58,371 nucleotides of DNA, taken from Clostridia bacterium (GTDB lineage: Bacteria; Bacillota; Clostridia; Christensenellales; UBA1242). Below the pieces are notes generated by a model, which worked only from the letters and a program-made list of their open reading frames with translations, was not told the DNA's origin and searched no databases. The stretch covers positions 1 through 58,371 of the forward strand of contig JBNMHN010000001.1 of the NCBI GenBank assembly GCA_050872805.1, in the 5' to 3' direction. Shown one piece after another: positions 8,509-54,570 of this stretch (the stretch's first letter is position 1; every line of letters starts with the position of its first letter). A program made the translations under genes and the position numbers.

Positions 8509-9834
<1,326 letters not shown>

Positions 9835-21100: not shown

Positions 21101-21102
21101 CA

Positions 21103-21282
21103 TATATGTACCTAATTTAATATAGTGTCACTCACTAAACCCACAGCAGTGGGGCTATCCCTAACGAAAATTGGAGCAAGTAGAAAGTACATAGGTACGC
21201 CGTCCACAATCGCTACTTGAGCGTAGGAACAGTACCTGCACCAGTGGCGTTTGCCACCAGCAGCGGGGCTATACCCGCCCAC
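21103..21282 (+). repeat. intergenic mosaic repeat locus R4
   Basis: CACTCACTAAACCCACAGC + GTGGGGCTATCCC. One L unit with GTAGGAACAGTACCTGCACC. Hairpins GTGGCGTTTGCCAC and GCGGGGCTATACCCGC, ending 9 nt before the SD of the next gene. Confidence 0.85.
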
Positions 21283-25000: not shown

Positions 25001-28000
25001 CCCTCAGTTCCGCTAATTGTCCAGCCAATAAATGTGTATCCATCGCGTATAGGTGTTGGCATTGCATTAATTCTATCGCCAAATGTAACAATTTTTGTCG
25101 CGAAATTGCTGCCTTCACCCACAATCCATTCTGTCGAGGTTGGAATTGAGGCAGGGTTTTCAGCGGTTCCGTTTGCATTGAAAGTTAGTGTGTAGGTATT
25201 TGCCGTATAGTTAGCAAGTATTATTGCGTCACTCTCTTTGAAAGTGAATGTAAGTTTTTCAGCGAGAGTTTCGCCACCACTTTGAGTGATATCCCCCGAA
25301 ACAATCGTGAACCCAGCAAAAGTATAACCTATTTTTGTCGGAGCAATGACATTAATAACATCTTTTGCGTGCCCAATAATTGTGAGTTGTTGCCCCTCAG
25401 CCGTACCGCCGTTGAGGTCAATCTTCAAAGTGAATTCATACTGTTCAAAGTAAGCGTACAAGGTGTGGTCTTCAGGATTTGTAACAATAGACGTGTCAAT
25501 AATCCTCTCGCCCTGTCCGTTCTCCTCCGTGAACCAGCCATTGAACTCCCAACCATAGCGGCTAACCTTTGGCAATGTGCCATACTTTTCACCATATGTG
25601 ACTTTCATTACATCGTCACTATGTGTAAGATCCGTCCAGTCAATTTCAACACCGTCCTCGATTGCATCGCTAGAGAGTTTGAATGTGACGTCGACCGACT
25701 GAGCCGCCCATTCTGCCGAAACAACCGCATTGCTTAACCCAAACGTGTACGTCCACGTACCGTCGCCATTGTTCTTTAGCGCGCCGTCGACCGTTGAAGT
25801 ATAACCAGTAAAGTCGTACCCCGTCTTAGTTGGCTCGCCAAATGTGAATGTTTCGCCGAATTTTTTGTTGATAGGATTTTCTTCAAGCACCAAATCGCCG
25901 CCGTTTAGAACAATCGTGAGTGATGTCGTGATTTCTTCAAACACAGCAAACAATGTGTGCGTTTCCGCATTCTTTACAAGAACTGATGGAATGATTTGCA
26001 CGCGGTTTTCATCGTCTCTGCTGTCAAACCAGCCGACAAAGTTATAGCCCGCCTTTGCTGGCGTTGGCAATTCGCCATACGCCTCATCAAACTTGACAGT
26101 CTTGCTTGCAATTTCGTTGCCGCTTGTCGCATTGTCATAGTCAAAGTTGACAATGATTTCTTTGTTTTCCCAAATTGCTACCAACTTGCAGTTGTCGTCA
26201 CCGAATGTAAAGTAAACTTTCCCTTCGCCCTCGCGAATATCAAGCGTACCCTTGTCGCCGACTTTTTCAAACTCTTTGAAAAGGTAACCGTAGCGTGTTG
26301 GAATACTGAAGTCGACAATTTCATTGAAATATGCCTCAAACTCTACATCCGTACTTGCCGCGCCGTCAATCGAACCGCCTGAAAGAATTACTTGCAACTT
26401 GTACTTGTGCAACTCCCAGTGTGCGTAAAGCGTGTGATTACGCGCAATCTTGACAGTCGTCGTATTGTCGATTTTCATTCCCTCATCGTCCGCAGTCGTG
26501 AACCAACCCACAAAATCGTAACCAGTCTTTGTTGGAACAGGTAGCGCGTCATACATTTGATCATATGTAACCTCAAGCGTCTCCGTCGTGTCTCCACCGT
26601 CAGCGCCGTTGTAGTCGAATGTTACAATGTACTTCTCGTTTTCCCAAACTGCCGTGAGCGTTGCATTACCCGCACCAAACACGAACTTGTAACTCGAAAG
26701 TTGTTCGTCTTGCGCCGTCAAAGTGCCCTCGCCCGTCATAATAAATCTAAGGAAACGGTACCCTTCACGCGTTGGCGTGTTGAATGTGACTTCATCTCCA
26801 CGTTTTTTGTCCTTAAAATCATATGTGTGTTGCGAATTGTTGAACACCCCGCCCTGAGGGTCAATCGTGAGAATGTACAAAATAGGTTCATATTGAGCAT
26901 AAAGGTCAAAGTTTGTAGGAATAGTTATTTCCATCTCATCAGTCATTTGGAATCCGCCATCAGGTTCCGTGAACCAACCAAGGAATCTATACCCCTCAAG
27001 TCTAGCGTTTGGCATTGCGCTGACAACATTGAATTTGTCGCCAAACTTATATTGGCGCATACCAGTCTTTTTGTCGTTTGAAATTGCCGTGTTCGACCCA
27101 AACAATTCGCCATCTTGCGCGTGGAAAGTAACTCTAATGTCCATTGCTTTCCAAATTGCATACAATGTGCTGTTGTCTGCACCAAACGTGAAGTGGTAAA
27201 TATCGCCGACTTTTTCAACCGAACCAATGCCGAGTCTGTTTTCGTAGCTTGCGAAATTGTAACCCGTCTTAGTTGGCGCCAAAATTTCAATTGTTTGCTC
27301 ATAAATACCCGTAAACGATTGAACTTGCTCTAAGTCGCCATATTTTCCGCCATCTAATTCTATAGTCAAAGTGTACAAAATATTTTCATATTTCGCCTTG
27401 ACAGTAATATCTTCAAGAATCTTAACAAGTTTGCTCTCGTCAATCAACTTGTCATCCGCATCAAACCAACCAAGGAATCTCATACCCGTCTTTGCCGCCA
27501 TTGGCAACACGCCGAATGTTTGGTCGTATGTGACGCCTTTCTTCGTGCCGTCGCCCTCGTATCCCTCAGTTTCGACATACTCGCCCCCGTCGTAGTCAAA
27601 CGAAACCGTGAACTTTAGCGCCGTCCAGTGAGCGCACAAAGTGTGGTCGCCCTTGTAGTTTACTATGCTTGAATCTGCAATTTGTATGTTCTTTTCTTCA
27701 AAGAACCAACCGTCAAAGTGATATCCCGTTTTTGTTGGAACAGGCAATACCCCATAAGGTTCGCCGTGGCTAACCGTGCGCGAATGTTCGCTTACCGTTC
27801 CGCCATTTGGGTCAAACGAAACAGTGTATTGATCTTCAACCCAATGAGCATACAATGTTTGATTGTTAGCAACAGTCACAATAGTTGTTTTTTCAATTTG
27901 CAAACTATCTGCACGCTCCGAAACGAACCACCCAGCAAAGACTTTCGTGTCGTGAACCGCAATCGGCATTTTTTCATAATATCCGCCAAATGTGACAGTG

Positions 28001-31000
28001 ATTTCGCCCTCGACACCACCAACAGCACCCGTGTATCCATCATCGCCAGCCGCAATGCGCCCACTGCCAGCATTGAACGTGATTGTGTAGGTGTTTGCAG
28101 TCCAGTGCGCATACAAAGTGATTGCGCCCGTGACAACGTCGTCAGCGTTAATCTTCTTGCCACCGTCTGCTAGAGTGTACCACCCCGCAAGAGTATACCC
28201 CTCACGAATTGCTTCAGGAATATCCCCATACGCTTCTCCATACGATCTAGTTATGGATGATTGAGTGAGTGTCCCTTTGTTTGCATCAAGAACGATTATA
28301 TAATCCGTAACTTTCCATTGCGCATACAACTTAACAGTATTACCATTTTCAGTTGTCAAGTTTTGGAAATACGCTCCGTCGCCATATCCATTACCATTTC
28401 CAGCCGCATCAAGCGTCCATTGAGTAAAAGTATAGCCTGTTTTAGTAAATCCAACACTTGGCAAACGCTTTCCTGAGTCATACTCGCATTGAATGTCATT
28501 CATACTCCCCTCAGCATCCGTGTCATTCTTTACAAATGTAACAGTATACTTAATAGGAGCCCATTGTGCCTCTATTCTACAGTTATCAGCCGCGAACTTG
28601 AACTTGAATTTCCCGTTCTCCTCCGTCAACTCTCCATCCCCAGTACGTTTCCATTCAGTAAGAAGATAACCAGTCTTTGTAGGAGCATCAAATGTTACTT
28701 CATCGTTAATTTGTCCATTGTAGTTTTGCGTTGCAGTCGAACCATCAATTTTTCCGTCGTTAAGAACAATAGTGAAAACATATATATTGTCGCCATAATT
28801 TGCTACCAAAGTAATGTCGTCTTCATAATTTACAATACTTGTTGAGTCAATACGAACGTTTCCATCGTACATAAATCCACTAAAGTCATGCCCAGCGTAA
28901 ACAATGTCGTCAGCAACTGGAATATTTTTATACATTTCACCAAACGTCGCAGTGATATGCCCGTTGTTGTCGGCACCAACATTATACTTAGTTTTTGCCG
29001 CATCCGTCCAAGTTGCGCCCATAGGGATGACAAGCGTAACATTTATTACGCGCACTTCCCATATTGCAGTAATTGTGTCGTTGTACGCATTAAATGTGTA
29101 TGTGTACCCGTCTGCAACATTACCAGTCAAATTGTCATTTTCTTCAAGCCCAACAAAATTGTATCCTCTGCGCTCAAAACTACTTGCGTAAATCTTAGTA
29201 GTTTTGCCATATTCTTCCGAAATTTTTGCCGCAGAATTTTTTCCATTGTAAGAACCGCCGTTAGGGTCAATCGTCAATTCATAGGTCTTGACGCTCCATT
29301 GAGCCACGAATGTCAAAACTTTGTTTGCAGTCGACGTCAAGTTTTTAACTGTCTCAGTGTTACCAAACTCAGTTCCCAACTCGTCGCATCTCCAGTTCTT
29401 GAAATCGTAACCCGCTTTAGTAAACGTGTTCATTGTGAGTGCAACAGAAGTATCATAGAAAATCGTTTGATTTTCCATTGTGCCAACACTACCAACTCCG
29501 CCCTCAAACTTGATTTGATATGAAATCGCGTTCCAGTTTGCAGTCAATGTGCCGTTACCCTCGCCAAACTTGTATGACGCGCCGCTCAAGCCTCTATAAC
29601 TCGTCGAACCATCTTTACCGACAAAAGTTTCCGTCCAACTAGCGAATGTGTAACCTTCACGTGTTGGAGTCGCAATTGGAATAGTATTGTTAAGCGCTTT
29701 CCCTTCAATTATTGTCGTCGTTGAACTTTCGCTATAAACTCCGCCATTAGGGTTGATTACCAAAGAATACCCATTTTGCGTCCAGTGTGCCGTCAAAGTG
29801 AAATCGCTCGTCTCTTTGACAATAGCAGAGCCACTGACAATCGTTCCGTCCGCACGCTTCCAGCCCGCAAATGTCTTACCACTTGTTTGCGGAATAGGGA
29901 GCGAACCATATTCTTTATCGTATGTAACAGTACGCGTTCTCTCCAAATCTCCGCCACCAACATTGGTAACGCCCTCTTGAACATAATCAAATGTCAAAGT
30001 GTAGGTATTTGGCGTCCACTGAGCAGAAAGTTCGGCATTTCCAAGCCCGAAAGTGAACATCCACTTGCCCGTCGAATCACTTGCAACGCCGTCATCATTA
30101 GACATATGTTTGAACGCCGTAAACGTGTAACCCGTTCGTGTCGGAATTGGTATTTCGTACGCTTTCCCAAAGTCGCCCTGAAGAGTTGCCGTTGTAGTTG
30201 TCGGTGAACCAAAGTACCCGCCGTTTGCAGAAATTGTGGCAATATACTTGCTTGTACTCCAGCCCGCATAAAGCGTGATGTTTTTAGTGAATTCAAACGG
30301 AGTATTTGTTTCAATTTTTGTCCCTTTCATATTTTGTTCGGTATACCAGCCCGCGAAAGTGAACCCTCTCAAAGTAGCCGACGGCAAAGTTCCGTATGGC
30401 TCATTGAAGTGCGCTGTAATGTTTGTTGTAGAACTTCCGCCCTCATAGTCTCCAAACTTGTCAATCGTACCTTTGCCCGCATCAAATGTGACCACATAGT
30501 CAATGATGTCCCAAAGCGCAATGACCCTGATATCTACTTCGGAATTGAAAGTGCTACCCGCAAAAACTGGAGCATTGCTGCCGTCATCTTTGACATAGTA
30601 TACAAAATCATACCCAATGCGTTCAACCGTTGGCAACAAGCCAATGGTACTATCATAAGAGCCTCTAATCTTGACATATCCGTTCTCATACGTGCCACTA
30701 CCACTGTCCTTGAAAACACCACCATTTGCATCAAACGTATATGTTACTTGAATCGCACTAAATTGCGGATAAAGTCTCATATCGTCCAAAACTTGAGTAT
30801 CGACAGTGACATTGTTGCCTTTTTCATCTCTAAAGCCAGTGAGGTTGTACCCACGCTTCGTGAGTGTCGGGAACGCGCCTATCTTTTCGCCGTAACTAAA
30901 TGTTTTTTTGAGCGCATATGACCCAGAATTTTGATAATTGTTTGACGAAACAACGTTTGTGTTCAATATGTCTATCGTGACAGTATATGTGTTGCCTACC

Positions 31001-34000
31001 CATTTAGCATACAATCTAAATTCGCCCGCATCTACTGTAGTGAGGTTATAAACAATTTGCTCATCGGTATAAATATCGCCTGTTCCATTACTATTTGGTG
31101 TCCAACCCCTAAAGTCGAAACCACTTCTTTGGTAAGTATTTTTCGAGAGTTTTACACTCTGCCCATATTTTACTGTCATTTTAGACATTTCAGTACCAGT
31201 AGCGTCCGCACTGTTCTTGTCAAAAACTATGTAGTAGGTGTTTGCTTGATATTGTGCATACAAAGTGTGCGTATTTGTCACAGTCCAAGTCTTTTCGATG
31301 TATAATGAACTATCTTCATCTTTCGCCCAGCCAAGGAACTTGAAGCCCACCTTGCTTGCCGTTGGCAAATCGTCATATTGCTCCCCATATTCATATTCTT
31401 TGCTAGCAACTTTGCTAGACCCGCCATTTGCGTTGAAAATTACAAGATATGTTTCATTTTCATAATGTGCATAAATGGTAACATCCTTGGTAAATCTAAC
31501 AATTGTGGATGGCACATACTGCGCGCCAGTCCCTTCTTTGCTTTCAAACCATCCAACTAGGCGTGCTCCCGACTTTGTGACGTTCGGGAAATCTCCAATT
31601 GGTTCATTGTAAGTGACGTCCTTGGTATAAGTGTCACCCGCGTTAAAAATTCCACCATTTGCGTTGAAAGTCAATCTGTACTTATTTGCCGTCCATTTTG
31701 CGGTCAAGGTAACTGTTTCCGTGATAATATCACTCGCAGAAGCCTGTTTGTCTGAAGCATAGAACCACCCAGCAAGCGTATAACCAGCAAATGTAGCAGT
31801 AGGTAAAGCGCCTATTTGGCTGTTGTACGGAATTATTCTTTGTGATGTTTGAGCCTTGCCCCCCATTGCATCAAAGAATACCATAACACTTTCGACTTCA
31901 AAACGCGCATATAGCGTTTTTGCGCCCGAAAACTTGTATACACTTGATTCAGCATATGAAGTCGAGTTTTCACCCGTCCCGTCGTACCACCCTCTAAAGT
32001 TGTAACCATCAAGGGAAGCCGTTGGCAACACGCCGAAAGGAGCATCGTATGTCATAGTCTTTGTAGCAGAATGTTTGTCAGCCGAAATATTCCAGCCGTT
32101 TGCAGCATTAATAGTTGCGTTGCTAGCGCTAAGTGTCAAAGTATACGTATTTGCCGTAAACTTTGCATACAACGTGCGAGACTCGGTCACCTTATCGCTT
32201 GTTTTTACAAGCGTGTTGTACGTGTTTTGGTAGTACCAGCCGTCAAAGCGATACCCAGTTTGCGTCGCGTTTGGCAAGACGCCCAAAGTTTGGCCGTAGT
32301 TGTACGTAACGATTGAAATACTCTCATTCACTCTGCCAGTAAACCCAGCCGTCGTCACAATCGTACCCGCGCCAGCACTAAATGTGACTGTGTACGTGAT
32401 TGCTTTCCATTGCGCGTAGAGCGTAAGTGTTTCGCCGTTCTTTGAAGTCAAATTGTAAACATCAGCACCGTCAACAAACCCCGATCCTTTGCCGTCTGCC
32501 TTAGTGTTCCAGCCGTTGAAAGTCCAGCCCGTCCTAGTAAATGCGTTGAGCGTCAATGTTCCGTGAGAACCGTATGTGTATGACGAAGCACCCATACTCC
32601 CAACGCCGCCGTTTGCATTGTACGCAACAGTATATCCGTTTGCATTCCACCTTGCCACAACCGTAGCATCACTATCACCAAACGTAAATGTAAAGCCTGA
32701 TAGTGTACCCGCCGCTCCTGTAGTCTTTTCCCAATTGACAAATGAGTAACCCTCTTTTGTCAAACCACTCGGCAAGGCAAGTTTCTCGCCAGTAGTTCCA
32801 GGTACCGTGTAGGCGCCCTGACCATTGTCACGGTCGACTGTCAAGACAAACGGAGTCGCCGAAAATTTTGCGTAAAGCGTTTTGCTGTTGTCTTCATCGT
32901 ATTTTGTGGACGTTTGCCAAACCTTTTCACTTGACGCACTTTCATACCACCCCAAAAATCTATATCCTGTCTTTGTAGCGGACGGCATATCGCCGATTTT
33001 AGCATCGTACGTGACAGTTTTTACGTAATTGCCCCCACTCGCCGTGACGCCCGACGGAATCACTCCCCAAGATTCACTAGAGTCGTTTAATACAAATGTC
33101 ATAGTGTAACGCTTTGGCGTGAATTTTGCTGTAATTGTCGCACTCCCCGCCCCGAAAGTAAACTGCGTTTTTGTCACAGAGCCCGAGCCAGATATTTCCC
33201 AGCCGGTATGATCATATCCAGTGCGAGTCACAGTCCCAAGGTCAATAGTCCGCCCATATATACCAGTGATCAAAGTCTTATCGCCGCTATAGGTACCGCC
33301 CATAGGGTCAATTCTCAACGTATATTCATTGCTCGTCCACCTAGCATATAAAGTTATATCCACATCAAAGTCGACAACATTATCTTTAGTGTATTGTTTT
33401 GCCGAATTCTCAATAAACCAGCCCTGAAATGTAGATCCCGTTTTTGTTGGCGTCGGCATTGTGCCAATCAATGTACCATAGGTAACAGTTTTGTCTGCAA
33501 TACGACCATTTTTATTCCAACCATTTATATTAGCCCAATTTTTTGAATTGCTATCTGCATCCGATGCACTTAATGTCAGTTTCAATGACTTTACATTCCA
33601 CTGAGCATAAATAATCGTCTCGTATGAGCCATTACCTTGGGAATAGAGAGAAAATGTGCTTGAATTTACTGAAGTTGTAAGCGAAATTTTATTTCCATCT
33701 TGTGTATTATTTACTTTGCTCCAATGCGAAAATGTGTATCCAGTTCTTATCGGCGTTGGTAATCTGACCGCATTTCCATATGCCGCACTTAATGAAGATG
33801 GCTCTCCGCTCGGCAAATAACCGCCGTTGAGTTCATAGTTGATTGTAACAGTAGCCGGCCCATAATGCGCATACAAAGTCCCGTTACCTGCTGTTTGCCA
33901 CGTGTTTTCAGTCGATATTAAATTATTGGCGTAATACTGTGTGCCTTTACCATTAATTTCAGTAAAGTATCCTTGGAAAACATAATATTCTTTTTGGGGC

Positions 34001-36381
34001 TTCATACTACTAGACAAATCAGGTAGCGGTCTATCGTATGTTGCAGTCACTTCACTTGGCCCATCAGTCCCGCCTTGTTGGTCGAAGCTTACTGTATATG
34101 TATTCGCCGTCCAATGCGCATAAAGTGTCATTGAAGAGTTAATTGGAGTTTCTCGATCGATTTGGCTCCCGCCACTCAACGCATCCCACCAACCATTGAA
34201 TGCATAGCCAGTTCTCTTGACAACCGGAAAATTATCTATCGTTTTGCCATACGTGATTTCTTTATCATCACCACCAGTAATACTGCCCCCGTTAGGGTCA
34301 AATTTTATTGTTGCTACCTTCCGCGTCAAGCCCGCATATAGGTTGATTTCAGTTCTTGTGTCTGTTATAATCGTGTCTTTGCCTATCTCTGCGCCTTGCC
34401 CTTTTGTCACAGTAACGTCATTTATTGTTTCGGTCGATTTATCATTATAAAACTTTCCATCCCAATCATAATATTGTGGCACGTGATTTGCTATTTGCTC
34501 TGTTGTCGGCCAACTTTTATCCCCCTCAACGACTTCACTATATTTTTTTGCAAACTTTGAATAGTATGTTGAGACTACTCCATCATTGACATAGAAGTTT
34601 ATTTTGACTTTTTGCGCTTCCCAGTGCGCATATAGGGTTATGTCCGATGTTATTGGTACAAGTCCATTACCATTCGAATCAATATATTGCGTTCCATCAC
34701 TGCTTCCTGTATAATAACCTAAAAATATATACCCACCTCTTGTAGGGATGTCAATTTTCCCAACCTTTTGGTCTTGTATCACAGTTAACGAACTAGTTCC
34801 ACCATTTGTATAATTTTTATCTAATGTAACAGTGTACTTTGCTAATGTTGTCTTTTCTTCATAATAGTTGTAAGGTGCAGCCGATTTCTCAGTCCACGCA
34901 GTTGTCCCTTTGGGGGTAATATACAAAGTTGTAGTTGTACGAATTTCCCCTTCATCACTACTTTTGCTTGTGCCGTCAGTCCAATTTGAAGAATATATGT
35001 TTACTTGCCCCGGTTTAAATGTGTCTTTCGAAGTACAAAAATCCTTATCATTTTCAATAGAGTTACATACAAGTCCATTATGGTTACCAAAAAGATAAGG
35101 CCCTGTTTCAGTACTACGATAAGCACATGGCCTATTTTGGCTTTCTTCATTCAAGCCGATATAAATGCATGCCGTAGATTTATGATCCTCTCTATATCCA
35201 TACCCTAAAATTGAGCCTTTACTTGTAGCGGTCATTGTACCTCGTGCATAAGACTCATAAATGTGGATGTGCGCATCTCTATCATCAAGCCACGCATTTC
35301 CCGCATTTGCAAATGCATAACCTACAATACCACCAGCAGCTACACCATTAGTCGCTTTTATATCTGCTACACTCGCGCATTGTGAAACATATGTGTTACC
35401 TGAAGTATTCCTACTCCCCGTACTATATGTATCAGCAAGAGCGTAACCGGCAATTCCACCTACATTTTTATTACCTGTAATGTTGCCCGTATTCCAGCAA
35501 TATGTCAAACTTGCACTCTTAGAACCCCTGCCTTTGATCTCCCCTACAATTCCACCTACATTGTCACTAGTATTAGAAACATCATTGCTATTTGAATGTT
35601 TTTTAGTTTCACCATTCCCCACACTATCTGTCACACCCCCCTTCGTCATCACGCCACGCTTTTGCGCTTGAGAGAACCATGTGTCGATGCTTGAGAGTGT
35701 GCTCATTGAGACATCGGTCAATTCGTTGGTTGGGAAGCCGATTTTTTCAATGTCGTTTGAGCCGTTTGTTGAGTATGAAATGTTTGTGTTTTCGGCATAG
35801 CCGACGATACCGCCGACTGCACCTTCGCCACTACGAGAAGAAACATTGACATACGAGTTGCGCATATCAACTTTAGTGATAAGAGATTCCTTTACAACAC
35901 CAAAAAGGCCATAGTAGTCGTATCTATCGCCTGTCATTGTCATAAAGTATATTGCTTTTTGAGCGCCGTCAAACGTACCCATAAACGGGTGCGCCATTGT
36001 ACCGATTGGCGTCCACTCGCGCCCTGCGAGATTGAGTTCGCTTGTCAGCGTGAAGTACATTCCCTCATAGGTTGTACCCGCATTGACGTTGCACGCGAGT
36101 TGCGCCAAGTCGGTTGCCGTCGCGATTTTGAACGCGTCCGTCTCCGTACCACTGCCCGCCCACGTCTCCGTGCCGAACACTTGCGGTGTGAGTCCGTCCG
36201 TCCATTCGGCGACCGCCGCGACTTTTTTGCTGACAAACGATTGCACAATCGGTGCCGCGATAATGGCTGTCATTGCCAAAATTGCGAAGAAAAGAGCAAG
36301 CAAAAAGTTAAATCTTCTCTTTTGTCTCCTCTCTCCAACCTCAACCAGCACCGACCCTGTCAGCGTTCTCAAATTATCCAT
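22015..36381 (-). CDS. giant (4,788 aa) tail-anchored surface protein: N-terminal TM, GLUG-motif region, approx 50 Listeria-Bacteroides (Flg_new) repeats, C-terminal TM
   Basis: Uninterrupted 14.4-kb frame. ATG at 36381 preceded by AGAGGAGAAAG. VGGIVGY / VGGIAGY GLUG-like motifs. Repeats follow the pattern YTVTFDANGG...GYTFxGW...LYAxW. C-terminus WPLVIAGGILALLLIVFFIIMIV + KINEKRSSRDK. Confidence 0.9.
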   Translation of the reverse strand: MDNLRTLTGSVLVEVGERRQKRRFNFLLALFFAILAMTAIIAAPIVQSFVSKKVAAVAEWTDGLTPQVFGTETWAGSGTETDAFKIATATDLAQLACNVNAGTTYEGMYFTLTSELNLAGREWTPIGTMAHPFMGTFDGAQKAIYFMTMTGDRYDYYGLFGVVKESLITKVDMRNSYVNVSSRSGEGAVGGIVGYAENTNISYSTNGSNDIEKIGFPTNELTDVSMSTLSSIDTWFSQAQKRGVMTKGGVTDSVGNGETKKHSNSNDVSNTSDNVGGIVGEIKGRGSKSASLTYCWNTGNITGNKNVGGIAGYALADTYSTGSRNTSGNTYVSQCASVADIKATNGVAAGGIVGYAFANAGNAWLDDRDAHIHIYESYARGTMTATSKGSILGYGYREDHKSTACIYIGLNEESQNRPCAYRSTETGPYLFGNHNGLVCNSIENDKDFCTSKDTFKPGQVNIYSSNWTDGTSKSSDEGEIRTTTTLYITPKGTTAWTEKSAAPYNYYEEKTTLAKYTVTLDKNYTNGGTSSLTVIQDQKVGKIDIPTRGGYIFLGYYTGSSDGTQYIDSNGNGLVPITSDITLYAHWEAQKVKINFYVNDGVVSTYYSKFAKKYSEVVEGDKSWPTTEQIANHVPQYYDWDGKFYNDKSTETINDVTVTKGQGAEIGKDTIITDTRTEINLYAGLTRKVATIKFDPNGGSITGGDDKEITYGKTIDNFPVVKRTGYAFNGWWDALSGGSQIDRETPINSSMTLYAHWTANTYTVSFDQQGGTDGPSEVTATYDRPLPDLSSSMKPQKEYYVFQGYFTEINGKGTQYYANNLISTENTWQTAGNGTLYAHYGPATVTINYELNGGYLPSGEPSSLSAAYGNAVRLPTPIRTGYTFSHWSKVNNTQDGNKISLTTSVNSSTFSLYSQGNGSYETIIYAQWNVKSLKLTLSASDADSNSKNWANINGWNKNGRIADKTVTYGTLIGTMPTPTKTGSTFQGWFIENSAKQYTKDNVVDFDVDITLYARWTSNEYTLRIDPMGGTYSGDKTLITGIYGRTIDLGTVTRTGYDHTGWEISGSGSVTKTQFTFGAGSATITAKFTPKRYTMTFVLNDSSESWGVIPSGVTASGGNYVKTVTYDAKIGDMPSATKTGYRFLGWYESASSEKVWQTSTKYDEDNSKTLYAKFSATPFVLTVDRDNGQGAYTVPGTTGEKLALPSGLTKEGYSFVNWEKTTGAAGTLSGFTFTFGDSDATVVARWNANGYTVAYNANGGVGSMGASSYTYGSHGTLTLNAFTRTGWTFNGWNTKADGKGSGFVDGADVYNLTSKNGETLTLYAQWKAITYTVTFSAGAGTIVTTAGFTGRVNESISIVTYNYGQTLGVLPNATQTGYRFDGWYYQNTYNTLVKTSDKVTESRTLYAKFTANTYTLTLSASNATINAANGWNISADKHSATKTMTYDAPFGVLPTASLDGYNFRGWYDGTGENSTSYAESSVYKFSGAKTLYARFEVESVMVFFDAMGGKAQTSQRIIPYNSQIGALPTATFAGYTLAGWFYASDKQASASDIITETVTLTAKWTANKYRLTFNANGGIFNAGDTYTKDVTYNEPIGDFPNVTKSGARLVGWFESKEGTGAQYVPSTIVRFTKDVTIYAHYENETYLVIFNANGGSSKVASKEYEYGEQYDDLPTASKVGFKFLGWAKDEDSSLYIEKTWTVTNTHTLYAQYQANTYYIVFDKNSADATGTEMSKMTVKYGQSVKLSKNTYQRSGFDFRGWTPNSNGTGDIYTDEQIVYNLTTVDAGEFRLYAKWVGNTYTVTIDILNTNVVSSNNYQNSGSYALKKTFSYGEKIGAFPTLTKRGYNLTGFRDEKGNNVTVDTQVLDDMRLYPQFSAIQVTYTFDANGGVFKDSGSGTYENGYVKIRGSYDSTIGLLPTVERIGYDFVYYVKDDGSNAPVFAGSTFNSEVDIRVIALWDIIDYVVTFDAGKGTIDKFGDYEGGSSTTNITAHFNEPYGTLPSATLRGFTFAGWYTEQNMKGTKIETNTPFEFTKNITLYAGWSTSKYIATISANGGYFGSPTTTTATLQGDFGKAYEIPIPTRTGYTFTAFKHMSNDDGVASDSTGKWMFTFGLGNAELSAQWTPNTYTLTFDYVQEGVTNVGGGDLERTRTVTYDKEYGSLPIPQTSGKTFAGWKRADGTIVSGSAIVKETSDFTLTAHWTQNGYSLVINPNGGVYSESSTTTIIEGKALNNTIPIATPTREGYTFASWTETFVGKDGSTSYRGLSGASYKFGEGNGTLTANWNAISYQIKFEGGVGSVGTMENQTIFYDTSVALTMNTFTKAGYDFKNWRCDELGTEFGNTETVKNLTSTANKVLTFVAQWSVKTYELTIDPNGGSYNGKNSAAKISEEYGKTTKIYASSFERRGYNFVGLEENDNLTGNVADGYTYTFNAYNDTITAIWEVRVINVTLVIPMGATWTDAAKTKYNVGADNNGHITATFGEMYKNIPVADDIVYAGHDFSGFMYDGNVRIDSTSIVNYEDDITLVANYGDNIYVFTIVLNDGKIDGSTATQNYNGQINDEVTFDAPTKTGYLLTEWKRTGDGELTEENGKFKFKFAADNCRIEAQWAPIKYTVTFVKNDTDAEGSMNDIQCEYDSGKRLPSVGFTKTGYTFTQWTLDAAGNGNGYGDGAYFQNLTTENGNTVKLYAQWKVTDYIIVLDANKGTLTQSSITRSYGEAYGDIPEAIREGYTLAGWYTLADGGKKINADDVVTGAITLYAHWTANTYTITFNAGSGRIAAGDDGYTGAVGGVEGEITVTFGGYYEKMPIAVHDTKVFAGWFVSERADSLQIEKTTIVTVANNQTLYAHWVEDQYTVSFDPNGGTVSEHSRTVSHGEPYGVLPVPTKTGYHFDGWFFEEKNIQIADSSIVNYKGDHTLCAHWTALKFTVSFDYDGGEYVETEGYEGDGTKKGVTYDQTFGVLPMAAKTGMRFLGWFDADDKLIDESKLVKILEDITVKAKYENILYTLTIELDGGKYGDLEQVQSFTGIYEQTIEILAPTKTGYNFASYENRLGIGSVEKVGDIYHFTFGADNSTLYAIWKAMDIRVTFHAQDGELFGSNTAISNDKKTGMRQYKFGDKFNVVSAMPNARLEGYRFLGWFTEPDGGFQMTDEMEITIPTNFDLYAQYEPILYILTIDPQGGVFNNSQHTYDFKDKKRGDEVTFNTPTREGYRFLRFIMTGEGTLTAQDEQLSSYKFVFGAGNATLTAVWENEKYIVTFDYNGADGGDTTETLEVTYDQMYDALPVPTKTGYDFVGWFTTADDEGMKIDNTTTVKIARNHTLYAHWELHKYKLQVILSGGSIDGAASTDVEFEAYFNEIVDFSIPTRYGYLFKEFEKVGDKGTLDIREGEGKVYFTFGDDNCKLVAIWENKEIIVNFDYDNATSGNEIASKTVKFDEAYGELPTPAKAGYNFVGWFDSRDDENRVQIIPSVLVKNAETHTLFAVFEEITTSLTIVLNGGDLVLEENPINKKFGETFTFGEPTKTGYDFTGYTSTVDGALKNNGDGTWTYTFGLSNAVVSAEWAAQSVDVTFKLSSDAIEDGVEIDWTDLTHSDDVMKVTYGEKYGTLPKVSRYGWEFNGWFTEENGQGERIIDTSIVTNPEDHTLYAYFEQYEFTLKIDLNGGTAEGQQLTIIGHAKDVINVIAPTKIGYTFAGFTIVSGDITQSGGETLAEKLTFTFKESDAIILANYTANTYTLTFNANGTAENPASIPTSTEWIVGEGSNFATKIVTFGDRINAMPTPIRDGYTFIGWTISGTEGDKDVYTPLTRVEFAQDLTLNATWSADKFALTIDLDGGKLLDQDSSVITFTASNGQSYDITSTPTKTGYKFERFEIEYAVEGQGRFEKTGNTWKFTFGSGNATITAIWTPIEIVITLDANGAQFDESSLNGWTLAADKNSATKTFNYKDLLGKIENSDGTTSIGALPQVSLEGSKFTGWFVDETQYSETSPIEWLVNTTLTASFAMNNYLLVINTNGGTYSDDEYNNKVGVFNISKVYGTIYNVANPSKTGYKFTGWTGSGVGTFDNTLGAFTFGAGTYTLVAEYEPIKYTIKFDANGGTGTMDAQEFTYDISDVLNENKFTYAGYTFKEWNTAADGTGEIFANMGMVLNETDVEGDEITLYAIWNSAWITMYFDANNGTADPVGMKVEHGKPFGALPRVERKGYNFGGWYESIVNDVPQGEPIEATTICKYTESRTFVAFWTIASYEITLPSGYPQDSMTLNVLDTYKGTLSEDGSKATILYNHDFAFEITILEAYSQSNIRVYATIKTTQVKKEILPINGAYMLTQIADDMVISVENLNKNTYKVVFDAREGLFGNSQYTTVTVEWGGKITRPTRPTRLHYDFIGWFASISSLAEFDFATYEVYADLTLYAKYEKANYKITFYVDDEVFWTDSVQYESVVTKPNDPIKEGYNFVGWRLVNGAMYSFSSQVTGELNLYAEFDKNTYTVRFYNGDRLLDTVEIKYGETVKVNFPVGITGYDLEGWYADAAFTTLFDFDQIITSDTNIYGKYVLQQFKVDFYVNGELQATQQVGYNHWAKIPTGIIVEVGHHIANWYTDVDLTQLFDFGKSITSDLVLFGKIEKDDIVITFVANEQKILRYVKYGDSLAPSEIPVIPARIGYDKVAPYWEDADLTNITSPLTINAVYTINKYTVTIIMPDGSHLYKEVEYGKTLTDLPKIKTKFGDKVVYDQDLSNITSNLVVHIEVQNYIFWPLVIAGGILALLLIVFFIIMIVKINEKRSSRDKIKELIDTNGR

Positions 36382-36431
36382 ATCTCTTTCTCCTCTAGTA
36401 GTCAATTTTATGTTTTGTTTTTTACTCTTTA

Positions 36432-36461
36432 ATTGTACTAAAATTCGACAAATAAAGTCAA
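36432..36461 (-). promoter_or_regulatory. candidate promoter TTGACT-18-TACAAT for the giant gene
   Basis: Minus strand: TTGACT (36461-36456), TACAAT (36437-36432). Lies between the repeat array and the RBS. Confidence 0.4.
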
Positions 36462-36469
36462 ACACTTTT

Positions 36470-36985
36470 GCCCCATTTTTACAAAATATTTTTGCGGCGG
36501 GGATAGCCCCGCGGCTGCAGATACTGGCGGGGATAGCCCCGCTGCTGCAGGTACTGTCCCTACGCGCCATTTGCTTTCGTGGACGGCATAGTGCATTCCA
36601 TTCTTTTCACTTTTTGTTCTCGTGTGGGAATATCCCCGCCGCTGGTGCGATAGCGCACTGCTACTGGTACTGTCCCTACACACCAGCCACTTTCATAGAC
36701 GGCGAACGCGACTGCTTTCTATGCCGTACAGTTCTCGAGTGGGGATAGCCCCGCGGCTGCAAATACTGTCCCTACTCTCAACCGACTTTCGCGGACGGCA
36801 AACGCAACTGCTTTCTATGCCGTACAGTTCTCGGGTGGGGATAGCCCCGCCGCTGGTGCGATAGCGCACTGCTACAGATGCTTTCCCTACGCGTCATTTG
36901 CTTTCGTGGACGGCGTAGCACATTTCATCCTATCCGCTTCAGTTCTCGGGTGCTTTCGCACCCGCGCCAGCAATCAAGCAAAAAA
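36470..36985 (-). repeat. intergenic mosaic repeat locus R5: tandem array of L units (alternating approx 96 and approx 114 bp)
   Basis: GGGGATAGCCCCGC-type hairpins start at approx 36497, 36527, 36624, 36739, 36835 and 36948. Each full unit carries GTACTGTCCCTAC, GGACGGC and GCTTTCTATG. Every second unit has an extra GTGCGATAGCGCAC. Confidence 0.9.
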
Positions 36986-37017
36986 ACACCTTTTCAAAAA
37001 AAATACCCCCAAAATGC

Positions 37018-37065
37018 TTGATTTTCTCCAGTAACTCGACTATAATAAGAGTTAGTGGAGAAAAT
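37018..37065 (+). promoter_or_regulatory. abiE promoter TTGATT-17-TATAAT bracketed by inverted repeat ATTTTCTCCA / TGGAGAAAAT
   Basis: TTGATT at 37018-37023 and TATAAT at 37041-37046. Inverted-repeat arms at 37021-37030 and 37056-37065 (25-bp spacer). The distal arm contains the SD. Confidence 0.65.
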
Positions 37066-37647
37066 ATGATAAAAACAACAAAGATTTTGTTGGGCGAACT
37101 GTCCAATTATGCTCGTCCATATGACAAGATAAGGCGACTTGTAGCAGAAAAAAAACTTATTCCAATTATCAAGGGGTTGTACGAAACGGATGCAACCGTT
37201 TCGGGGCATTATCTTGCAGCGAGCATTTGTGGCCCCTCCTATTTGTCCTTTGAGTTCGCTTTGTCTTACTATGGACTGATTCCAGAAGCGGTTTACACAA
37301 TCACGTCTGCGACATTCAAAAAACATAAACGCAAAGAATACGATACACCATTTGGCTTTTTTACCTATCAAGATGTGCCAAAAAGTGCGTACCCTTGGGG
37401 GATTAAAATCGTCGATGAAAATGGTTACGCCTTTCAAATAGCGTCCCCTGAAAAAGCGCTTTGCGACAAACTTTATGCTTTGCACCCATTGCAAAATTTA
37501 GGCCAGTTGCAAACGCTGCTTTTTGACGATTTGCGAATTGACGAAAACGGATTTTGTAAACTAAACAAGGACGACATTGATTTTCTTGCCGATAAGTACA
37601 AAAGCAAGAATGTCACACTGCTTGCAAAATTTATGAGGAGAACTTGA
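37066..37647 (+). CDS. abiEi: type IV toxin-antitoxin / abortive infection AbiEi-family antitoxin (transcriptional regulator)
   Basis: Position immediately upstream of an AbiEii gene (1-nt gap). N-terminal wHTH-like region and a SFEFALSYYGLIPE-type segment. ATG at 37066 after GGAG. Confidence 0.7.
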   Translation: MIKTTKILLGELSNYARPYDKIRRLVAEKKLIPIIKGLYETDATVSGHYLAASICGPSYLSFEFALSYYGLIPEAVYTITSATFKKHKRKEYDTPFGFFTYQDVPKSAYPWGIKIVDENGYAFQIASPEKALCDKLYALHPLQNLGQLQTLLFDDLRIDENGFCKLNKDDIDFLADKYKSKNVTLLAKFMRRT

Positions 37648-37648
37648 T

Positions 37649-38515
37649 ATGAATCCTATTATTGATGAAATGCTGAAAAATTATAATGCGAACAATCTTA
37701 ATGACAAAAAAAATGCAATCAAAGAGATAATGCAGGAAATCGTTTTGTGCGGACTTAGCCGCGCGGGCTTTTTTGACAAGGCAGTTTTTTATGGCGGCAC
37801 GGCTTTGCGCATATTCTATGGGCTGGATAGATTTTCTGAAGATTTAGATTTTTCTCTCAGGACTCAAGACCCTAGTTTTAATCTTGAAAAGTTTTTCCCC
37901 ATTTTGGAGAGAGAGGTAAATTCGCTAGGCTTGAATGTTAAAATTGAAAACAAAGAAAAAACTTTTGATTCAGCAATCAAGTCCGCCTTTTTAAAAGGCA
38001 ATACAAAGGAACACCTTTTGATGTTTTACTCAGATAATTCGCTTGTCAAGGGGATAAATCCTGAGGAAGTCATAAAAATTAAATTTGAGATAGACACCAA
38101 TCCGCCCCCTTTTGCAACGTTTGAAACTATGTATAGGTTGCAGCCAAGCCCCTACGAAATTAGTTTGTACGATTTACCTTCGTTGTTTGCTGGCAAAATT
38201 AGCGCCGTGCTTTGCAGAGCGTGGAAAAATCGTATCAAGGGGAGAGATTTGTATGATTACATTTTTTACCTTCAAAAAAATGCGGCTTTCAATTTAAAGC
38301 ACCTGCAAGCAAGGTTGGTTCAAGCAGGATTTATCGAAGATGGGCAAACGATAACACTTGACGATGTAAAAGCGCTTTTAAACAAAAGGTTTGACAGCAT
38401 TGATTATGAGGACGCAAAAAAAGATGTAATTCCATTTATCAAAGACCCCCTCGCTTTAAATGTATGGAGTAAAGATTTTTTCAAGGCAATTACACAAAAC
38501 CTAAAAGCGGAATAA
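37649..38515 (+). CDS. abiEii: AbiEii/AbiGii-family nucleotidyltransferase toxin (DUF1814)
   Basis: FYGGTALRIFYGLDRFSEDLDFS NTase motif. 288 aa. Confidence 0.85.
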   Translation: MNPIIDEMLKNYNANNLNDKKNAIKEIMQEIVLCGLSRAGFFDKAVFYGGTALRIFYGLDRFSEDLDFSLRTQDPSFNLEKFFPILEREVNSLGLNVKIENKEKTFDSAIKSAFLKGNTKEHLLMFYSDNSLVKGINPEEVIKIKFEIDTNPPPFATFETMYRLQPSPYEISLYDLPSLFAGKISAVLCRAWKNRIKGRDLYDYIFYLQKNAAFNLKHLQARLVQAGFIEDGQTITLDDVKALLNKRFDSIDYEDAKKDVIPFIKDPLALNVWSKDFFKAITQNLKAE

Positions 38516-38518
38516 TCA

Positions 38519-38578
38519 TCCCAAAAATGCCCGATTTTCTCCAGTAACTCTTGTTTTAGTCGTGTTAGTGGAGAAAAT
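38519..38578 (+). repeat. second copy of the abiE operator region, with decayed promoter hexamers
   Basis: CCAAAAATGCCCGATTTTCTCCAGTAACTC...GTTAGTGGAGAAAAT matches 37008-37065. The inverted-repeat arms and the 25-bp spacing are identical. The -35/-10 positions read CCGATT / TTTTAG. Confidence 0.8.
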
Positions 38579-38873
38579 CGAGTATTTTTTTTGTAATTTT
38601 ACTCCGTTTTTTGCGTTTTTTGTGATTGTTTTCTTTTTGTAATTGTGGTAGTTTTTAACGATTTGCTTTATCATTATTATTTGCCATTTTTATGCTACTA
38701 AATACTTATCATTTTTATGCTACTAAAAATATTCCTTTGTTGGCGTTTTGCGCTTGGCGTTTATGTTGGACGTTCTCATATTGTCGTCATTTTTGCATTG
38801 TGCAAATTTTCCGCTTGCTTTTTGCGCAAAAAATGATATAATATGCACATAATTATTTATAAGGAGAGTTATT

Positions 38874-45282: not shown

Positions 45283-45377
45283 AAAAAACTCTTTGATTAT
45301 CAAAAAAACTCTTTGATTATCAAAAAAACTCTTTGAGTGAAGAATAAATAAATTCTCCATTCTAAAGAGTTTTTTTA
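45283..45377 (+). repeat. 2.7 copies of a 20-bp direct repeat (CAAAAAAACTCTTTGATTAT). The last copy forms the 5' arm of a terminator hairpin.
   Basis: Copies at approx 45283-45300, 45301-45320 and 45321-45336. The 3' arm TCTAAAGAGTTTTTTT is at 45361-45376. Confidence 0.7.
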
Positions 45378-45485
45378 TGGTTATATAACAAATGTTGTGG
45401 TGATATAAAAATTTATAGGAAAAGCACTCAGTATGAAACCAAGTACCTAATCCGTTTCCAACGTGATAACTATAATAGCAACTTT

Positions 45486-45698
45486 ACAACGCACATAGTC
45501 AATTGACTATGTACCAACAACATACAGCGTCACTCACCAAACCTGCAGCAGCGGGGCTTTCCCCGCCCAAACCTGCACAAGTGGCGTTTGCCACTATCCC
45601 CACCGAGAACACGTGCTTATAGAAAGCACATAAGTGCGCCGCTCACTGACGCAACTTGCTTGTAGGGACAGTACCTGCAGCAGCGAGGCTACGCCCGC
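45486..45698 (+). repeat. intergenic mosaic repeat locus R6
   Basis: Palindrome CACATAGTCAATTGACTATGTAC. CACTCACCAAACCTGCAGC-GCGGGGCTTTCCCCGC-CCAAACCTGCAC-GTGGCGTTTGCCAC. One L unit ends in GCGAGGCTACGCCCGC, which contains the stop of the next gene. Confidence 0.85.
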
Positions 45699-46234
45699 TC
45701 GTCGTCATCGTCGTCAAAATCGTCGTCCTCGTCGTCTTCTTCATCTTCATCGTCGTCATCAAAATCGTCGTCAAAGTCCTCGTCCGTCATATCTTGCGCA
45801 AACTCGTCCTTTGCAAGTTCGTCAATTTCCGCAAAGTTCAAATCTGAATCAAGTGCAATGTCGTCAAGGTCAGTCGATATGCCTGCGTCGTACCCGTCGT
45901 CAATGCTGCCGATTGACGCCATTGGCCCCAAGTTTTCCTCTTCCTCGTTGTCGTCCTCAATGCCGTCATCATTGATATAATCGTGCCATTCAGTGAGGTC
46001 GATGTCGTCCACATCTGCGCCCTCCGCTTCTTTCTCGGCAGCACAACTAGCGCACATAATTTCGTCCTCAGTAATATAGTTCGTCTTGCAAATAGGGCAC
46101 AATTCAAGGTCAATGTCACACGCAAGGTCGTCGTGCCTTGCGTTCATTTCGTTGATGCAAACACTACAATAGTCCTCCCCTTTCTTTATGTAGTTGAGTT
46201 CACATCTTGGGCATCTTTTATATATTGTTTTCAT
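45689..46234 (-). CDS. double zinc-ribbon protein with hyper-acidic Asp/Glu C-terminal half
   Basis: CPRC...CSVC and CPIC...CASC pairs, then approx 110 aa dominated by D/E. ATG at 46234 preceded by AGGAG. Confidence 0.7.
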   Translation of the reverse strand: MKTIYKRCPRCELNYIKKGEDYCSVCINEMNARHDDLACDIDLELCPICKTNYITEDEIMCASCAAEKEAEGADVDDIDLTEWHDYINDDGIEDDNEEEENLGPMASIGSIDDGYDAGISTDLDDIALDSDLNFAEIDELAKDEFAQDMTDEDFDDDFDDDDEDEEDDEDDDFDDDDDERA

Positions 46235-46351
46235 AATTATTTTTTCTCCTAACATTTTTTTAAAATGGTTTAGTATATTTTAATGATTTTTAATACAAAA
46301 GTCTACTATTTTTGCAATGTTTTTAACAAAAAATCACGAATTTGGTAAAAA

Positions 46352-52352: not shown

Positions 52353-52651
52353 AAGCCACTCACCCTCTTGTCTTTTTGACCAAAGGCGGAGACGTCTGCC
52401 CTCGCCGCCGCGGAGAGTGCCAGACGGCACAGGTGTGGTTGTTGGTTGGTGCGTATACGTTGTTGTGTGGCGGCAACCAAACCTGCAGTCAAGGCGAGCC
52501 TTGCCGAAAGGGTAACCCGATACATTATGGGTTACATAACCGCCTTGACCGCGCTAGCATATAACTATCATACAAAAAGAACGGCAGTGCGCCGTCCTCA
52601 AAAGTAAATTAAACGTACAAACAGTACTCACAGTCGCGGGGCTTTCCCCGC
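52353..52651 (+). repeat. intergenic mosaic repeat locus R7
   Basis: GCCACTCACCC. CCAAACCTGCAGT + CAAGGCGAGCCTTG. GGTAACCCGATACATTATGGGTTAC...TTGACCGCGCTAGC. One L unit ends in GCGGGGCTTTCCCCGC, 20 nt from the next stop codon. Confidence 0.8.
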
Positions 52652-52671
52652 AAATTGTCATATTGTTAATT

Positions 52672-54162: not shown

Positions 54163-54570
54163 ACCTTGCGAGAGCGGCAACCTGTTACATTATGGGTTAC
54201 CCCAAAAATTTGACCGCGCCAGCCTACAAATAAAGAAAACTATTGTAAAAGTGGTAAGTCACCCACCCCCATCGTCATTGCGAGGCAGTCAATGGAATAT
54301 TGTGCCACTACTTGCGCTTATCGCTCCAACTGACACATTAGGTACGTCTGCCTATGCGAACCCGCCCATCCCTTGACAACGTGGCAATCTCCCGGAAGGG
54401 CAACCCGATACATTATGAGCGAGTTTACACATTGACCGCGCTAGCAAACATAAAAGGTACATAGCAAATTAACTATGTACCTACTTTCATATAAAGTCAC
54501 TCACCAAACCTGCAGCAGCGGCCTATGCCGCCCAAACCTGCAGCCGTGCGCTTTCGCACCACATCGTCCA
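54163..54570 (+). repeat. intergenic mosaic repeat locus R8
   Basis: Two T modules (GCAACCTGTTACATTATGGGTTAC..TTTGACCGCGCCAGC and GCAACCCGATACATTATGAG..ATTGACCGCGCTAGC). Palindrome GGTACATAGCAAATTAACTATGTACC. CACTCACCAAACCTGCAGC-GCGGCCTATGCCGC-CCAAACCTGCAGC-GTGCGCTTTCGCAC. Confidence 0.85.

Follow-up and report, generated by a model that had tools for sequence, protein, structure and literature searches.

Why should a stack of GC-rich hairpins stand between two divergent genes? The question is raised by a 58,371-nucleotide (nt) stretch from a Clostridia bacterium, an uncultured inhabitant of the gut (contig JBNMHN010000001.1, positions 1 to 58,371 of the forward strand; hereafter the window), in which a tandem hairpin array at 36496-36972 lies between a giant surface-protein gene and an abiE toxin-antitoxin operon. 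An initial annotation of this sequence had proposed that the array could be a terminator stack or insulator, a processed structured-RNA array, or an expansion hot spot. According to our analysis, the array does not serve as a control element of the giant gene or of abiE in particular. It is probably a local, unusually large cluster of lineage-specific, fast-changing, small non-coding interspersed repeats of a REP/BIME- or BOX-like kind, which would spread and amplify at the DNA level and which has probably no effect at this site.

The array is a mosaic of heads and bodies

The units of the array share one plan, in which a GC-rich hairpin head (14-18 nt) is followed by a junction (GCTGCAGGT or GCNGCTGCAGGT) and by a body of about 70 nt ending in TTCTCG, here called L. 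Head to tail on the + strand, the array consists of four full units of 96-115 nt, preceded by a 5' head-only unit and closed by a 3' lone hairpin:

36496-36525, + strand: U1, a 30-nt head-only unit with the hairpin at 36497-36512 (GCGGGG-ATAG-CCCCGC), then GGCTGCAGATACT
36526-36622, + strand: U2, a short unit of 97 nt with its head at 36527-36542, junction and L body (nhmmer E=1.3e-22)
36623-36737, + strand: U3, a long unit of 115 nt with an imperfect head at 36624-36639, an extra hairpin and L body (nhmmer E=1.1e-19)
36738-36833, + strand: U4, a short unit of 96 nt with its head at 36739-36754 and a body 86% identical to that of U3
36834-36948, + strand: U5, a long unit of 115 nt with its head at 36834-36851 and an extra hairpin at 36856-36869
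36949-36972, + strand: U6, a closing head without body (GGTGC-TTTC-GCACC) and a partial junction, GCGCCAGCA

Hairpins of the GGGGATAGCCCCGC type start at 36497, 36527, 36624, 36739 and 36835, that at 36624 being an imperfect version (GGGAATATCCCC); in the window this motif has 17 matches with up to two mismatches, against 0.06 expected from shuffles. The initial annotation had counted six such hairpins, and for five of them this holds; the sixth, starting at 36948/9, is of a different type (GGTGCTTTCGCACC). Its description of the layout is otherwise borne out, since the unit starts are spaced by 30, 97, 115, 96 and 115 nt, every unit has + polarity, and short and long forms alternate, the extra hairpin GTGCGATAGCGCAC (GTGCG-ATAG-CGCAC) being present only in the long units U3 (36645-36658) and U5 (36856-36869).

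The same annotation had read the array as about 2.5 copies of a 210-bp dimer, and here only the alternation of the heads survives. Head identity does alternate (81% between U2 and U4, 89% between U3 and U5), but the bodies pair otherwise (86% between U3 and U4, 80% between U2 and U5) and the dimers U2U3 and U4U5 are only 75% identical. Tandem Repeats Finder reported periods of 30 (2.0 copies, 93% matches) and 96 (2.0 copies, 86%) on the array and none near 210. The array is therefore a mosaic of heads and bodies and not a duplicated dimer. Whole units within it are 61-77% identical and the segments between hairpins 66-86%, these segments being mutually homologous. The 30-nt head-only form of U1 occurs also at 3284-3313 of a related locus, L027.

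The array is absent from the same spacer in relatives

Related loci (numbered L001 onwards) were fetched through homologues of MscS, and a second set through homologues of PheT at 95-97% protein identity. Measured across yqeY-mscS plus the gene that follows, L001 shares 87% of its nucleotides with the window, L023 82%, L020 80%, L022 76.5% and L024 73%. L020 has kept the giant gene (its homologue encodes 4782 aa) and yqeY, and it has neither abiE nor the array; the 523 nt at 36469-36991 of the window correspond in it to 69 unrelated nt (6383-6451). The array is absent as well from L022, L023 and L024, and L023 carries the same abiE cassette, placed after AAA_21 and RloB genes. Because abiE stands without the array in L023 and the giant gene without it in L020, the array is tied to neither, and a functional connection is not supported. 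At this locus the array is probably dispensable.

In L001, the closest relative, three units occupy the equivalent site upstream of yqeY; they are 67% identical to the units of the window, while the flanking genes are 87% identical. L004 has one partial unit beside the same promoter-like block. Across genomes the copy number at this site is thus 0, about 1, 3 or 4+2, the picture of an expansion hot spot that the initial annotation had offered as one of its options, and one that is repeated in the gain and loss of modules at other loci, described below. From about 36970, at the right edge of the array, the window has a short motif, caATCAAGCAAA, of which a counterpart, caaATCAAGCAAA, was seen by eye in L024, and this hints that the right flank predates the array. 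Because L024 shares this motif and L020, L022 and L024 are without the array, a gain in the lineage of the window would be the simplest reading, its direction being judged by parsimony over the five relatives compared.

The units belong to a dispersed family

A hidden Markov model profile was built from 11 units of the window and used in an nhmmer search of 317 kb, comprising the window and the non-redundant related loci. The search gave 87 matches, 72 of them near full length, which fall into 48 clusters: 22 singletons, 17 pairs, 6 triplets, 2 quadruplets and a single cluster of 5 matches, the array at 36496-36972. The initial annotation had called this the largest cluster of the family in the window, and it is also the largest in the whole 317 kb. 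None of the 48 L-unit clusters falls within an open reading frame (ORF), clusters are found beside housekeeping genes, and arrays of 2-4 units recur in independent assemblies. Every array, this one included, is ordered head to tail, and none alternates. Unit orientation across the 58-kb window is mixed, and clusters between co-directional genes are in sense orientation 15 times and antisense 10 times (binomial p = 0.42); another 10 clusters have convergent genes on either side, and 9 have divergent ones. The other copies in the window are as follows:

3346-3708, - strand: three L units with an M module between, the first head abutting the TAG stop of the gene at 3706-4425
8117-8212, + strand: a single L unit flanked by M modules (profile match)
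17608-17760, + strand: a long L unit, a closing head and a partial body, the head being some 10 nt away from a divergent gene's start codon
21100-21279, - strand: a long L unit (match at 21165-21279), a head and an M module, antisense to both flanking genes
45480-45699, - strand: an L unit (match at 45541-45699), two head-only units and an M module, with the TAG stop of a gene in the loop of the first head
52557-52652, - strand: a single L unit (profile match)
57432-57527, - strand: one 96-nt L unit between pheS and pheT that begins at the TAG stop of pheS

Scanning the GTDB species-representative genomes for the exact core motif gave 17 loci, of which 15 come from two "uncultured Clostridia" metagenome-assembled genomes (MAGs), one from a Lachnospiraceae MAG and one from a contig binned as Akkermansia, possibly a binning error. 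The core motif was absent from the viral contigs scanned, the loci L022-L026 (relatives at 73-86% MscS protein identity) have no L units, and a literature search with the string GGGGATAGCCCC gave no match.

The window holds a further repeat type at 52400-52570 (- strand) and 54228-54538, made of a long hairpin, GCGCGGTCAAGGCG...CGCCTTGAC, and then TGCAGGTTTGG. Pieces of L005 and L013 match the stretch at 54228-54538 with 82-84% identity, although neither locus has any gene in common with the window.

Modules come and go between close genomes

Turnover is also seen in the pheS-pheT spacer. In the window this spacer is 136 nt long and holds a head and an L body. In L029 it reads head-L-N' (252 nt), in L031 head-M-head-head-L-N' (354 nt) and in L027 a 30-nt head, head-L and head-M (348 nt); in the distant relatives L022 and L026 it is a repeat-free 16-43 nt. 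Overall, L029 and L031 show about 96-97% identity; in this spacer they are almost the same, apart from one clean insertion or deletion of 102 nt that consists of an M body and heads. It begins after ...GCAGGT of the resident head and ends in ...GTAGGT, so that AGGT stands at both bounds. Downstream of another gene, L029 has head-L and about 570 nt of M and N modules, and L031 has head-L-head-L. In L020, the yqeY-mscS gap holds an array of 3.0 copies of a 208-nt N module with the same head (7233-7860, 99% identity), inserted 4 nt after the yqeY stop; the corresponding gap of the window is only 25 nt.

The breakpoints recur at the head and the junction. Because the sequences share only 4-5 nt there, we infer that a site-specific process fits these changes better than general homologous recombination would. 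Taken with the empty and filled sites described above, the comparisons support a family that is active, or was recently active, at the DNA level.

One head, several bodies

The consensus unit runs from the head through GCNGCTGCAGGT, ACTGTCCCTAC, 15 variable nt, GTGGACGGC, about 17 variable nt, TTCTAT and about 10 variable nt to GTTCTCG, and the conserved blocks of the L body (ACTGTCCCTAC ... GGACGGC ... TTCTAT ... TTCTCG) are at fixed spacing. In the head it is the loop that is conserved, as an ATAG, AAAG or AAAC tetraloop. Around it we found at least 10 different, perfectly complementary stems, among them CGGGG/CCCCG, GTGGC/GCCAC, GTGCG/CGCAC, GCGGC/GCCGC, GTGGG/CCCAC, GCGCG/CGCGC, GTGCC/GGCAC, CGGGT/ACCCG and CGGTG/CACCG. 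Because so many compensatory stems share one loop, the head hairpin is under selection. Such variation is confined to the head, which is the sole part of the unit with structural support.

The same head and junction also precede other types of body, at least M and N, so that the elements form head-body-head-body mosaics. The M body (TTGGTGAGTGRC ... GGTACATAG-loop-CTATGTACC-TTTT) resembles a terminator, and the N body, of about 190 nt, contains ...TGTCATTTCGACCGAAAG.... The M modules of the window, which have the head and junction in common, are these:

3440-3498, - strand: M module
8058-8115, + strand: M module
8234-8290, + strand: M module
21100-21141, - strand: M module
45480-45543, - strand: M module
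54440-54510, - strand: M module

The M module opens with GGTTTGGTGAGTGRC... and continues into a 9-bp AT-rich hairpin (GGTACATAG/CTATGTACC) and a T-run, an arrangement like that of an intrinsic terminator. N-like pieces (TGTCATTTCGACCGAA...) occur also in L011, L015, L022, L029 and L031.

Family members cap genes with a TAG stop codon

In 21 cases the head side faces a co-oriented gene, and in 17 of these the first head begins at -9 to +5 nt relative to the end of that gene's stop codon; median distances on the tail side are about 210-220 nt. The stop codons of head-capped genes are TAG in 18 cases, TAA in four and TGA in none. Among the other ORFs, TAA (121) and TGA (47) outnumber TAG (38, or 18%), and the two sets differ with Fisher p = 3e-9. 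TAG lies directly against the stem in 12 head-capped genes, preceded by C in 11 of them (C-TAG), and is itself the hairpin loop in six. Examples from the window are at 3706-3708, 45689-45691 and 57525-57527, the last of these at the end of pheS, which reads ...CAC TAG followed by the head in the window and ...CAC TGA in L022, which is without the repeat. REP elements, too, reportedly often lie right after stop codons, as Liang, Rudd and Deutscher are said to have described in 2015.

None of this applies to the array at 36496-36972, whose head side faces a promoter. Because units end in TTCTCG, every internal head is preceded by CT-C-G, and a rule of insertion after CT[A/C]G would explain tandem stacking, stop-codon capping and the heads that abut the complement of a ribosome-binding site (CCTC). 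Only about 14 of the 33 array starts, however, conform to a target rule of CT[A/C]G or CCTC, and we keep it as a lead.

Genes and promoter-like sites beside the array

The neighbourhood of the array is made up as follows, the promoter calls being consensus matches:

22015-36381, - strand: giant surface-protein gene (4788 aa) with Listeria-Bacteroides repeat domains, its ATG at 36381 preceded by GGAGGAGAAAG
36461-36432, - strand: promoter-like site of the giant gene, TTGACT-18-TACAAT, with the -35 hexamer 35 nt from the array
37003-37065, + strand: palindromic site of about 62 nt that holds the abiE promoter-like site and recurs upstream of abiEi in L023
37018-37046, + strand: promoter-like site of abiE, TTGATT-17-TATAAT, inside the palindromic site
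37066-37647, + strand: abiEi-like gene (193 aa), without a Pfam match, in the position of abiEi
37649-38515, + strand: abiEii, matching PF08843

The candidate promoter of the giant gene thus lies where the initial annotation had put it, between the array and the gene, and its block is kept upstream of the homologous gene in L020, L022 and L024. These two promoter-like sites are the only ones in 36300-37100. They face outward, with the array between them and upstream of both, and none lies inside it. The remainder of the window is ordinary chromosome, with pheS, pheT, efp, ksgA, tilS and others.

Several further observations concern these genes. A metagenome scan with the N-terminus of the giant protein returned only relatives at 36-39% identity, and the 5' leader of giant-like genes is highly variable, with 230-400 nt of unrelated sequence from the promoter block to the start codon in more distant relatives (L022 1090-1330; L024 3260-3690, a C-rich leader). 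Repeat-rich surface or low-complexity proteins are encoded nearby at 8509-9849, 12127-14412 and 45689-46255; one is a collagen triple-helix repeat protein, one has an MBG domain, and one has an acidic C-terminus of GAC repeats with the stop codon inside a repeat head. At 45283-45336, just downstream of a gene for 742 aa, a 20-nt sequence (AAAAAACTCTTTGATTATCA) is perfectly repeated in tandem (2.7 copies, 100% identity). Exact look-ups of the AbiEi and AbiEii proteins returned no entry, so that the collection consulted does not contain the genome of the window.

The abiEi/abiEii cassette is flanked by two copies of the imperfect palindrome of about 62 nt (GATTTTCTCCAGTAACTC...GAGTTAGTGGAGAAAATC), at 37003-37065 and 38517-38590 of the window and at 2166-2222 and 3672-3735 of L023. 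The centre of the left copy is inverted and carries the -10 hexamer of abiE. Relatives without abiE (L020, L001) have one copy only, that of L020 at 6465-6535. The cassette therefore looks as if gained or lost at the palindrome, which may also be the AbiEi operator. A variable island upstream of yqeY (window 36982-38873, L001 1900-3540, L023 1-3860, L020 6383-6760) holds abiE in the window, AAA_21, RloB and abiE in L023, a gene with a Lin1244_N domain in L001 and nothing in L020.

Could the array act on its neighbours?

Transcription of the units as structured RNAs, be it a small-RNA array or a precursor cut at each hairpin, was among the possibilities raised by the initial annotation, and it draws on the compensatory variation of the head stems, on the folding of the 496-nt array region above its shuffles (z = -4.75 on the + strand) and on a raw folding energy that is lower on the sense strand in 37 of 54 units. 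The reverse strand, however, also folds well (z = -3.65), and the sense advantage vanishes once composition is controlled, the z-scores of the two strands being -1.11 and -1.17 for units and -0.56 and -0.39 for bodies. RNAalifold found no consensus structure over 54 units; over 11 it gave the head and a 6-bp CUGUCC/GGACGG helix only, and this helix has no compensatory double changes. Scanning all column pairs of the body for covariation gave nothing but trivial pairs of purine or pyrimidine with an invariant T. In the head stems, G-T and A-C mismatches are about equally frequent (33 vs 26), a balance that points neither to one strand as the folding one nor to DNA or RNA as the form that folds. 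No Rfam family matched at the gathering threshold in the window and 124 kb of related loci, permissive Rfam scans of the array (36380-37070) and of the N-module array of L020 gave chance-level matches only, and ARAGORN found no tRNA or tmRNA. With no promoter-like site within the array and no bias in orientation relative to genes besides, we hold structured RNAs to be improbable. A terminator stack or insulator between the divergent giant-gene and abiE units, the initial annotation's other proposal, is if anything a shade less credible. Several GC-rich hairpins in that position, and forms elsewhere that add a T-run to the hairpin (the unit at 52557-52652, ACGGC-GCACT-GCCGT then TTCTTTTTG, and the M-module hairpin), would suit it, but the heads are followed by GCNGCTGCAGG and not by a T-run, and 36300-37100 holds no terminator-like site. 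Because both promoter-like sites point outward, there is no transcript for the array to stop. The sense-oriented L unit between pheS and pheT argues against efficient termination by L units, the 15 to 10 split of orientations shows no preference for the sense strand, and the closest relative that bears the giant gene, L020, has no array at the site.

Repeated binding sites for a nucleoid protein or regulator that would tune the giant-gene promoter or abiE could account for body blocks kept at fixed spacing with no structure signal, and for an array that begins 35 nt upstream of a -35 hexamer. Against this, the same units occur at 48 unrelated sites beside housekeeping genes, both abiE (L023) and the giant gene (L020) are found without the array, and the palindromic site of the AbiEi type at 37003-37065 is a separate element; we give this explanation little chance. 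A tandem repeat directly upstream of a toxin-antitoxin operon, and co-oriented with it, also recalls the ToxI-like RNA antitoxins of type III systems, here for the adjacent abiE toxin. The units, however, are genome-wide, abiEii encodes a nucleotidyltransferase of a type IV system with its own protein partner, and the abiE promoter-like site lies downstream of the array; the cassette of L023, present without the array, effectively refutes this reading. There is, finally, the artefact of collapsed or duplicated reads that the initial annotation had named as a way for the array to be undone. Repeats are a known source of misassembly, and the 99%-identical array of three 208-nt copies in L020 could be affected. 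The array units of the window differ by 23-39%, so that short reads place them uniquely, and comparable arrays are present in independent assemblies, which makes an artefact here exceedingly improbable.

Comparison with known repeat systems

For each of REP/BIME, BOX, MITEs (miniature inverted-repeat transposable elements), CRISPR, ToxI and terminators, at least one defining feature was not found in the family; we therefore file it under no named repeat family, and as a variant of the known class of small interspersed repeats. Among the closest known systems are the REP/BIME elements, likewise high-copy GC-rich stem-loops restricted to intergenic DNA and variable between strains. Their clusters are reiterated in tandem along with flanking segments (PMC3733652), and BIMEs have a mosaic composition (PMC2817692), both as here. 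In BIMEs, however, the REPs alternate in orientation (PMC2817692), and here all units have the same orientation. A REP-type hairpin has 20-40 bp, against the 14-18 nt of the family head, which is always fused to a long conserved body (70-190 nt) and conserves the loop of its hairpin, not the stem. REP palindromes bear a conserved tetranucleotide, GTAG or CGTC, at one of their ends (PMC3733652), and no such tag adjoins the head, whose 5' side is CT[A/C]G or variable and whose 3' side is GCNGCTGCAGGT; CTAC, which reads GTAG on the opposite strand, is nearly invariant and stands about 20 nt away from the head. We saw no RAYT (Y1 transposase) gene among the genes examined in about 360 kb of DNA of the lineage. 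The survey of PMC3733652 makes no mention of Firmicutes or Clostridia, and the host here is labelled Clostridia.

In build the family is also close to BOX (boxA-boxB(n)-boxC) and SPRITE, modular small interspersed repeats of the Gram-positive Streptococcus with copies near gene ends (PMC3049150). As in BOX, the tandem number of one module varies, different end modules go with shared internal ones, and elements cluster and insert into each other; clusters here have 1-5 units, and a common head stands before L, M and N bodies alike. In BOX, boxA and boxC are terminal inverted repeats and pair with one another, and the family arrays have no such ends: an inverted-repeat search gave head-against-head matches only, and arrays start and end with heads in direct orientation. 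Nor is there sequence similarity to BOX, the shared module of the family being a short hairpin before every body. By pure analogy, non-autonomous derivatives of IS200/IS605 (PATEs, moved by HUH single-strand transposases) also come close, with no terminal inverted repeats or obvious target duplication, a hairpin near the end of the element, breakpoints at a fixed short sequence by the hairpin (...AGGT) and possibly a preference for CT[A/C]G as the sequence to insert behind, from which head-to-tail arrays would follow too. No TnpA, TnpB or RAYT gene was seen, and units lie in both orientations within the 58-kb window, although one might expect a bias to one strand.

As to MITEs, the 96-nt unit between pheS and pheT has unrelated ends (TAGGTGG... 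and ...GTTCGCG) and no duplication; the AGGT on both sides of the 102-nt indel is ambiguous as a target duplication. CRISPR arrays share the regular spacing of short hairpin-forming repeats. In the family, however, the segments between hairpins are homologous (66-86%) and not unique spacers, the spacing varies (30, 96, 115 nt), copies are scattered over dozens of loci, and no cas genes are nearby.

Origin of the array

We therefore return to interspersed repeats that spread as DNA. A gain or amplification at the DNA level, in the spacer between the giant gene and abiE, has produced the array; this follows from its absence from the same spacer in relatives and from the fast change of copy number and modules between close genomes. 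Because breakpoints fall at the head and junction, the mechanism may be a site-specific, hairpin-dependent process acting in trans, for instance by an HUH/Y1-type transposase or a recombinase, and slippage or unequal exchange between heads could add to it. At this locus the array would most likely be untranscribed and have no role specific to the site, adding at most about 450 bases between two promoters. Elsewhere, by analogy with REP, co-oriented copies would put a hairpin and a TAG at the 3' ends of genes and could affect mRNA 3' ends or translation termination.

Several points weigh against this account. No transposase, integrase, recombinase or HUH protein was found among the genes examined in the lineage DNA, by Pfam scans of 41 proteins (38 of the window, 3 of L001) and gene tables of about 100 kb of relatives, a search that says little about a gene present in one copy. 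Terminal inverted repeats are absent, and no target-site duplication is clear. The array's units resemble one another no more than they resemble units at other sites (median body identity 0.70), with U3-U4 as the only mutual best match of bodies within it, so that recent local amplification is unproven for 36496-36972. That the array is untranscribed is suggested by consensus promoter matches and their conservation. The strict capping of stop codons, moreover, suggests a selected or mechanistic role that the favoured explanation leaves unaccounted for.

Some room is left, with distinctly less probability, for the array as the product of an undescribed site-specific DNA insertion system, in which non-coding modules would integrate beside a GC hairpin, either where ...AGGT forms the junction or 3' of CT[A/C]G, stack head to tail and cap genes with TAG, a system distinct from REP/RAYT, MITEs and integron cassettes. 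The Lin1244_N gene of L001 was considered as the mobilising enzyme and rejected, since it has the look of a replication-initiator gene of phage type and contains internal 21-nt repeats. Nor does L004 offer an independent site: it apparently has the same gene in the same SpoU-side neighbourhood, with flanking ORFs of the same size, the same 21-nt repeats and the same upstream block. In L001 this gene is flanked by inverted L arrays, and its roughly four tandem 21-nt repeats (CAAAATGACGTCA...; L001 2334-2414, L004 2132-2219) resemble origin iterons.

For the locus itself, a tempting but unsupported reading is removed, in that the array regulates neither the giant adhesin-like gene nor the abiE defence cassette. 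If confirmed, the account given here of the family would provide a gut lineage labelled Clostridia, for which few repeats of this kind have been described, with a modular element that is densely repeated and evolves fast. It would also offer natural filled and empty sites for studying how hairpin-headed repeats move, and would raise the question of why co-oriented copies begin exactly at a stop codon and replace it with TAG. Such arrays will fragment short-read assemblies, and they could serve as markers for strain typing.

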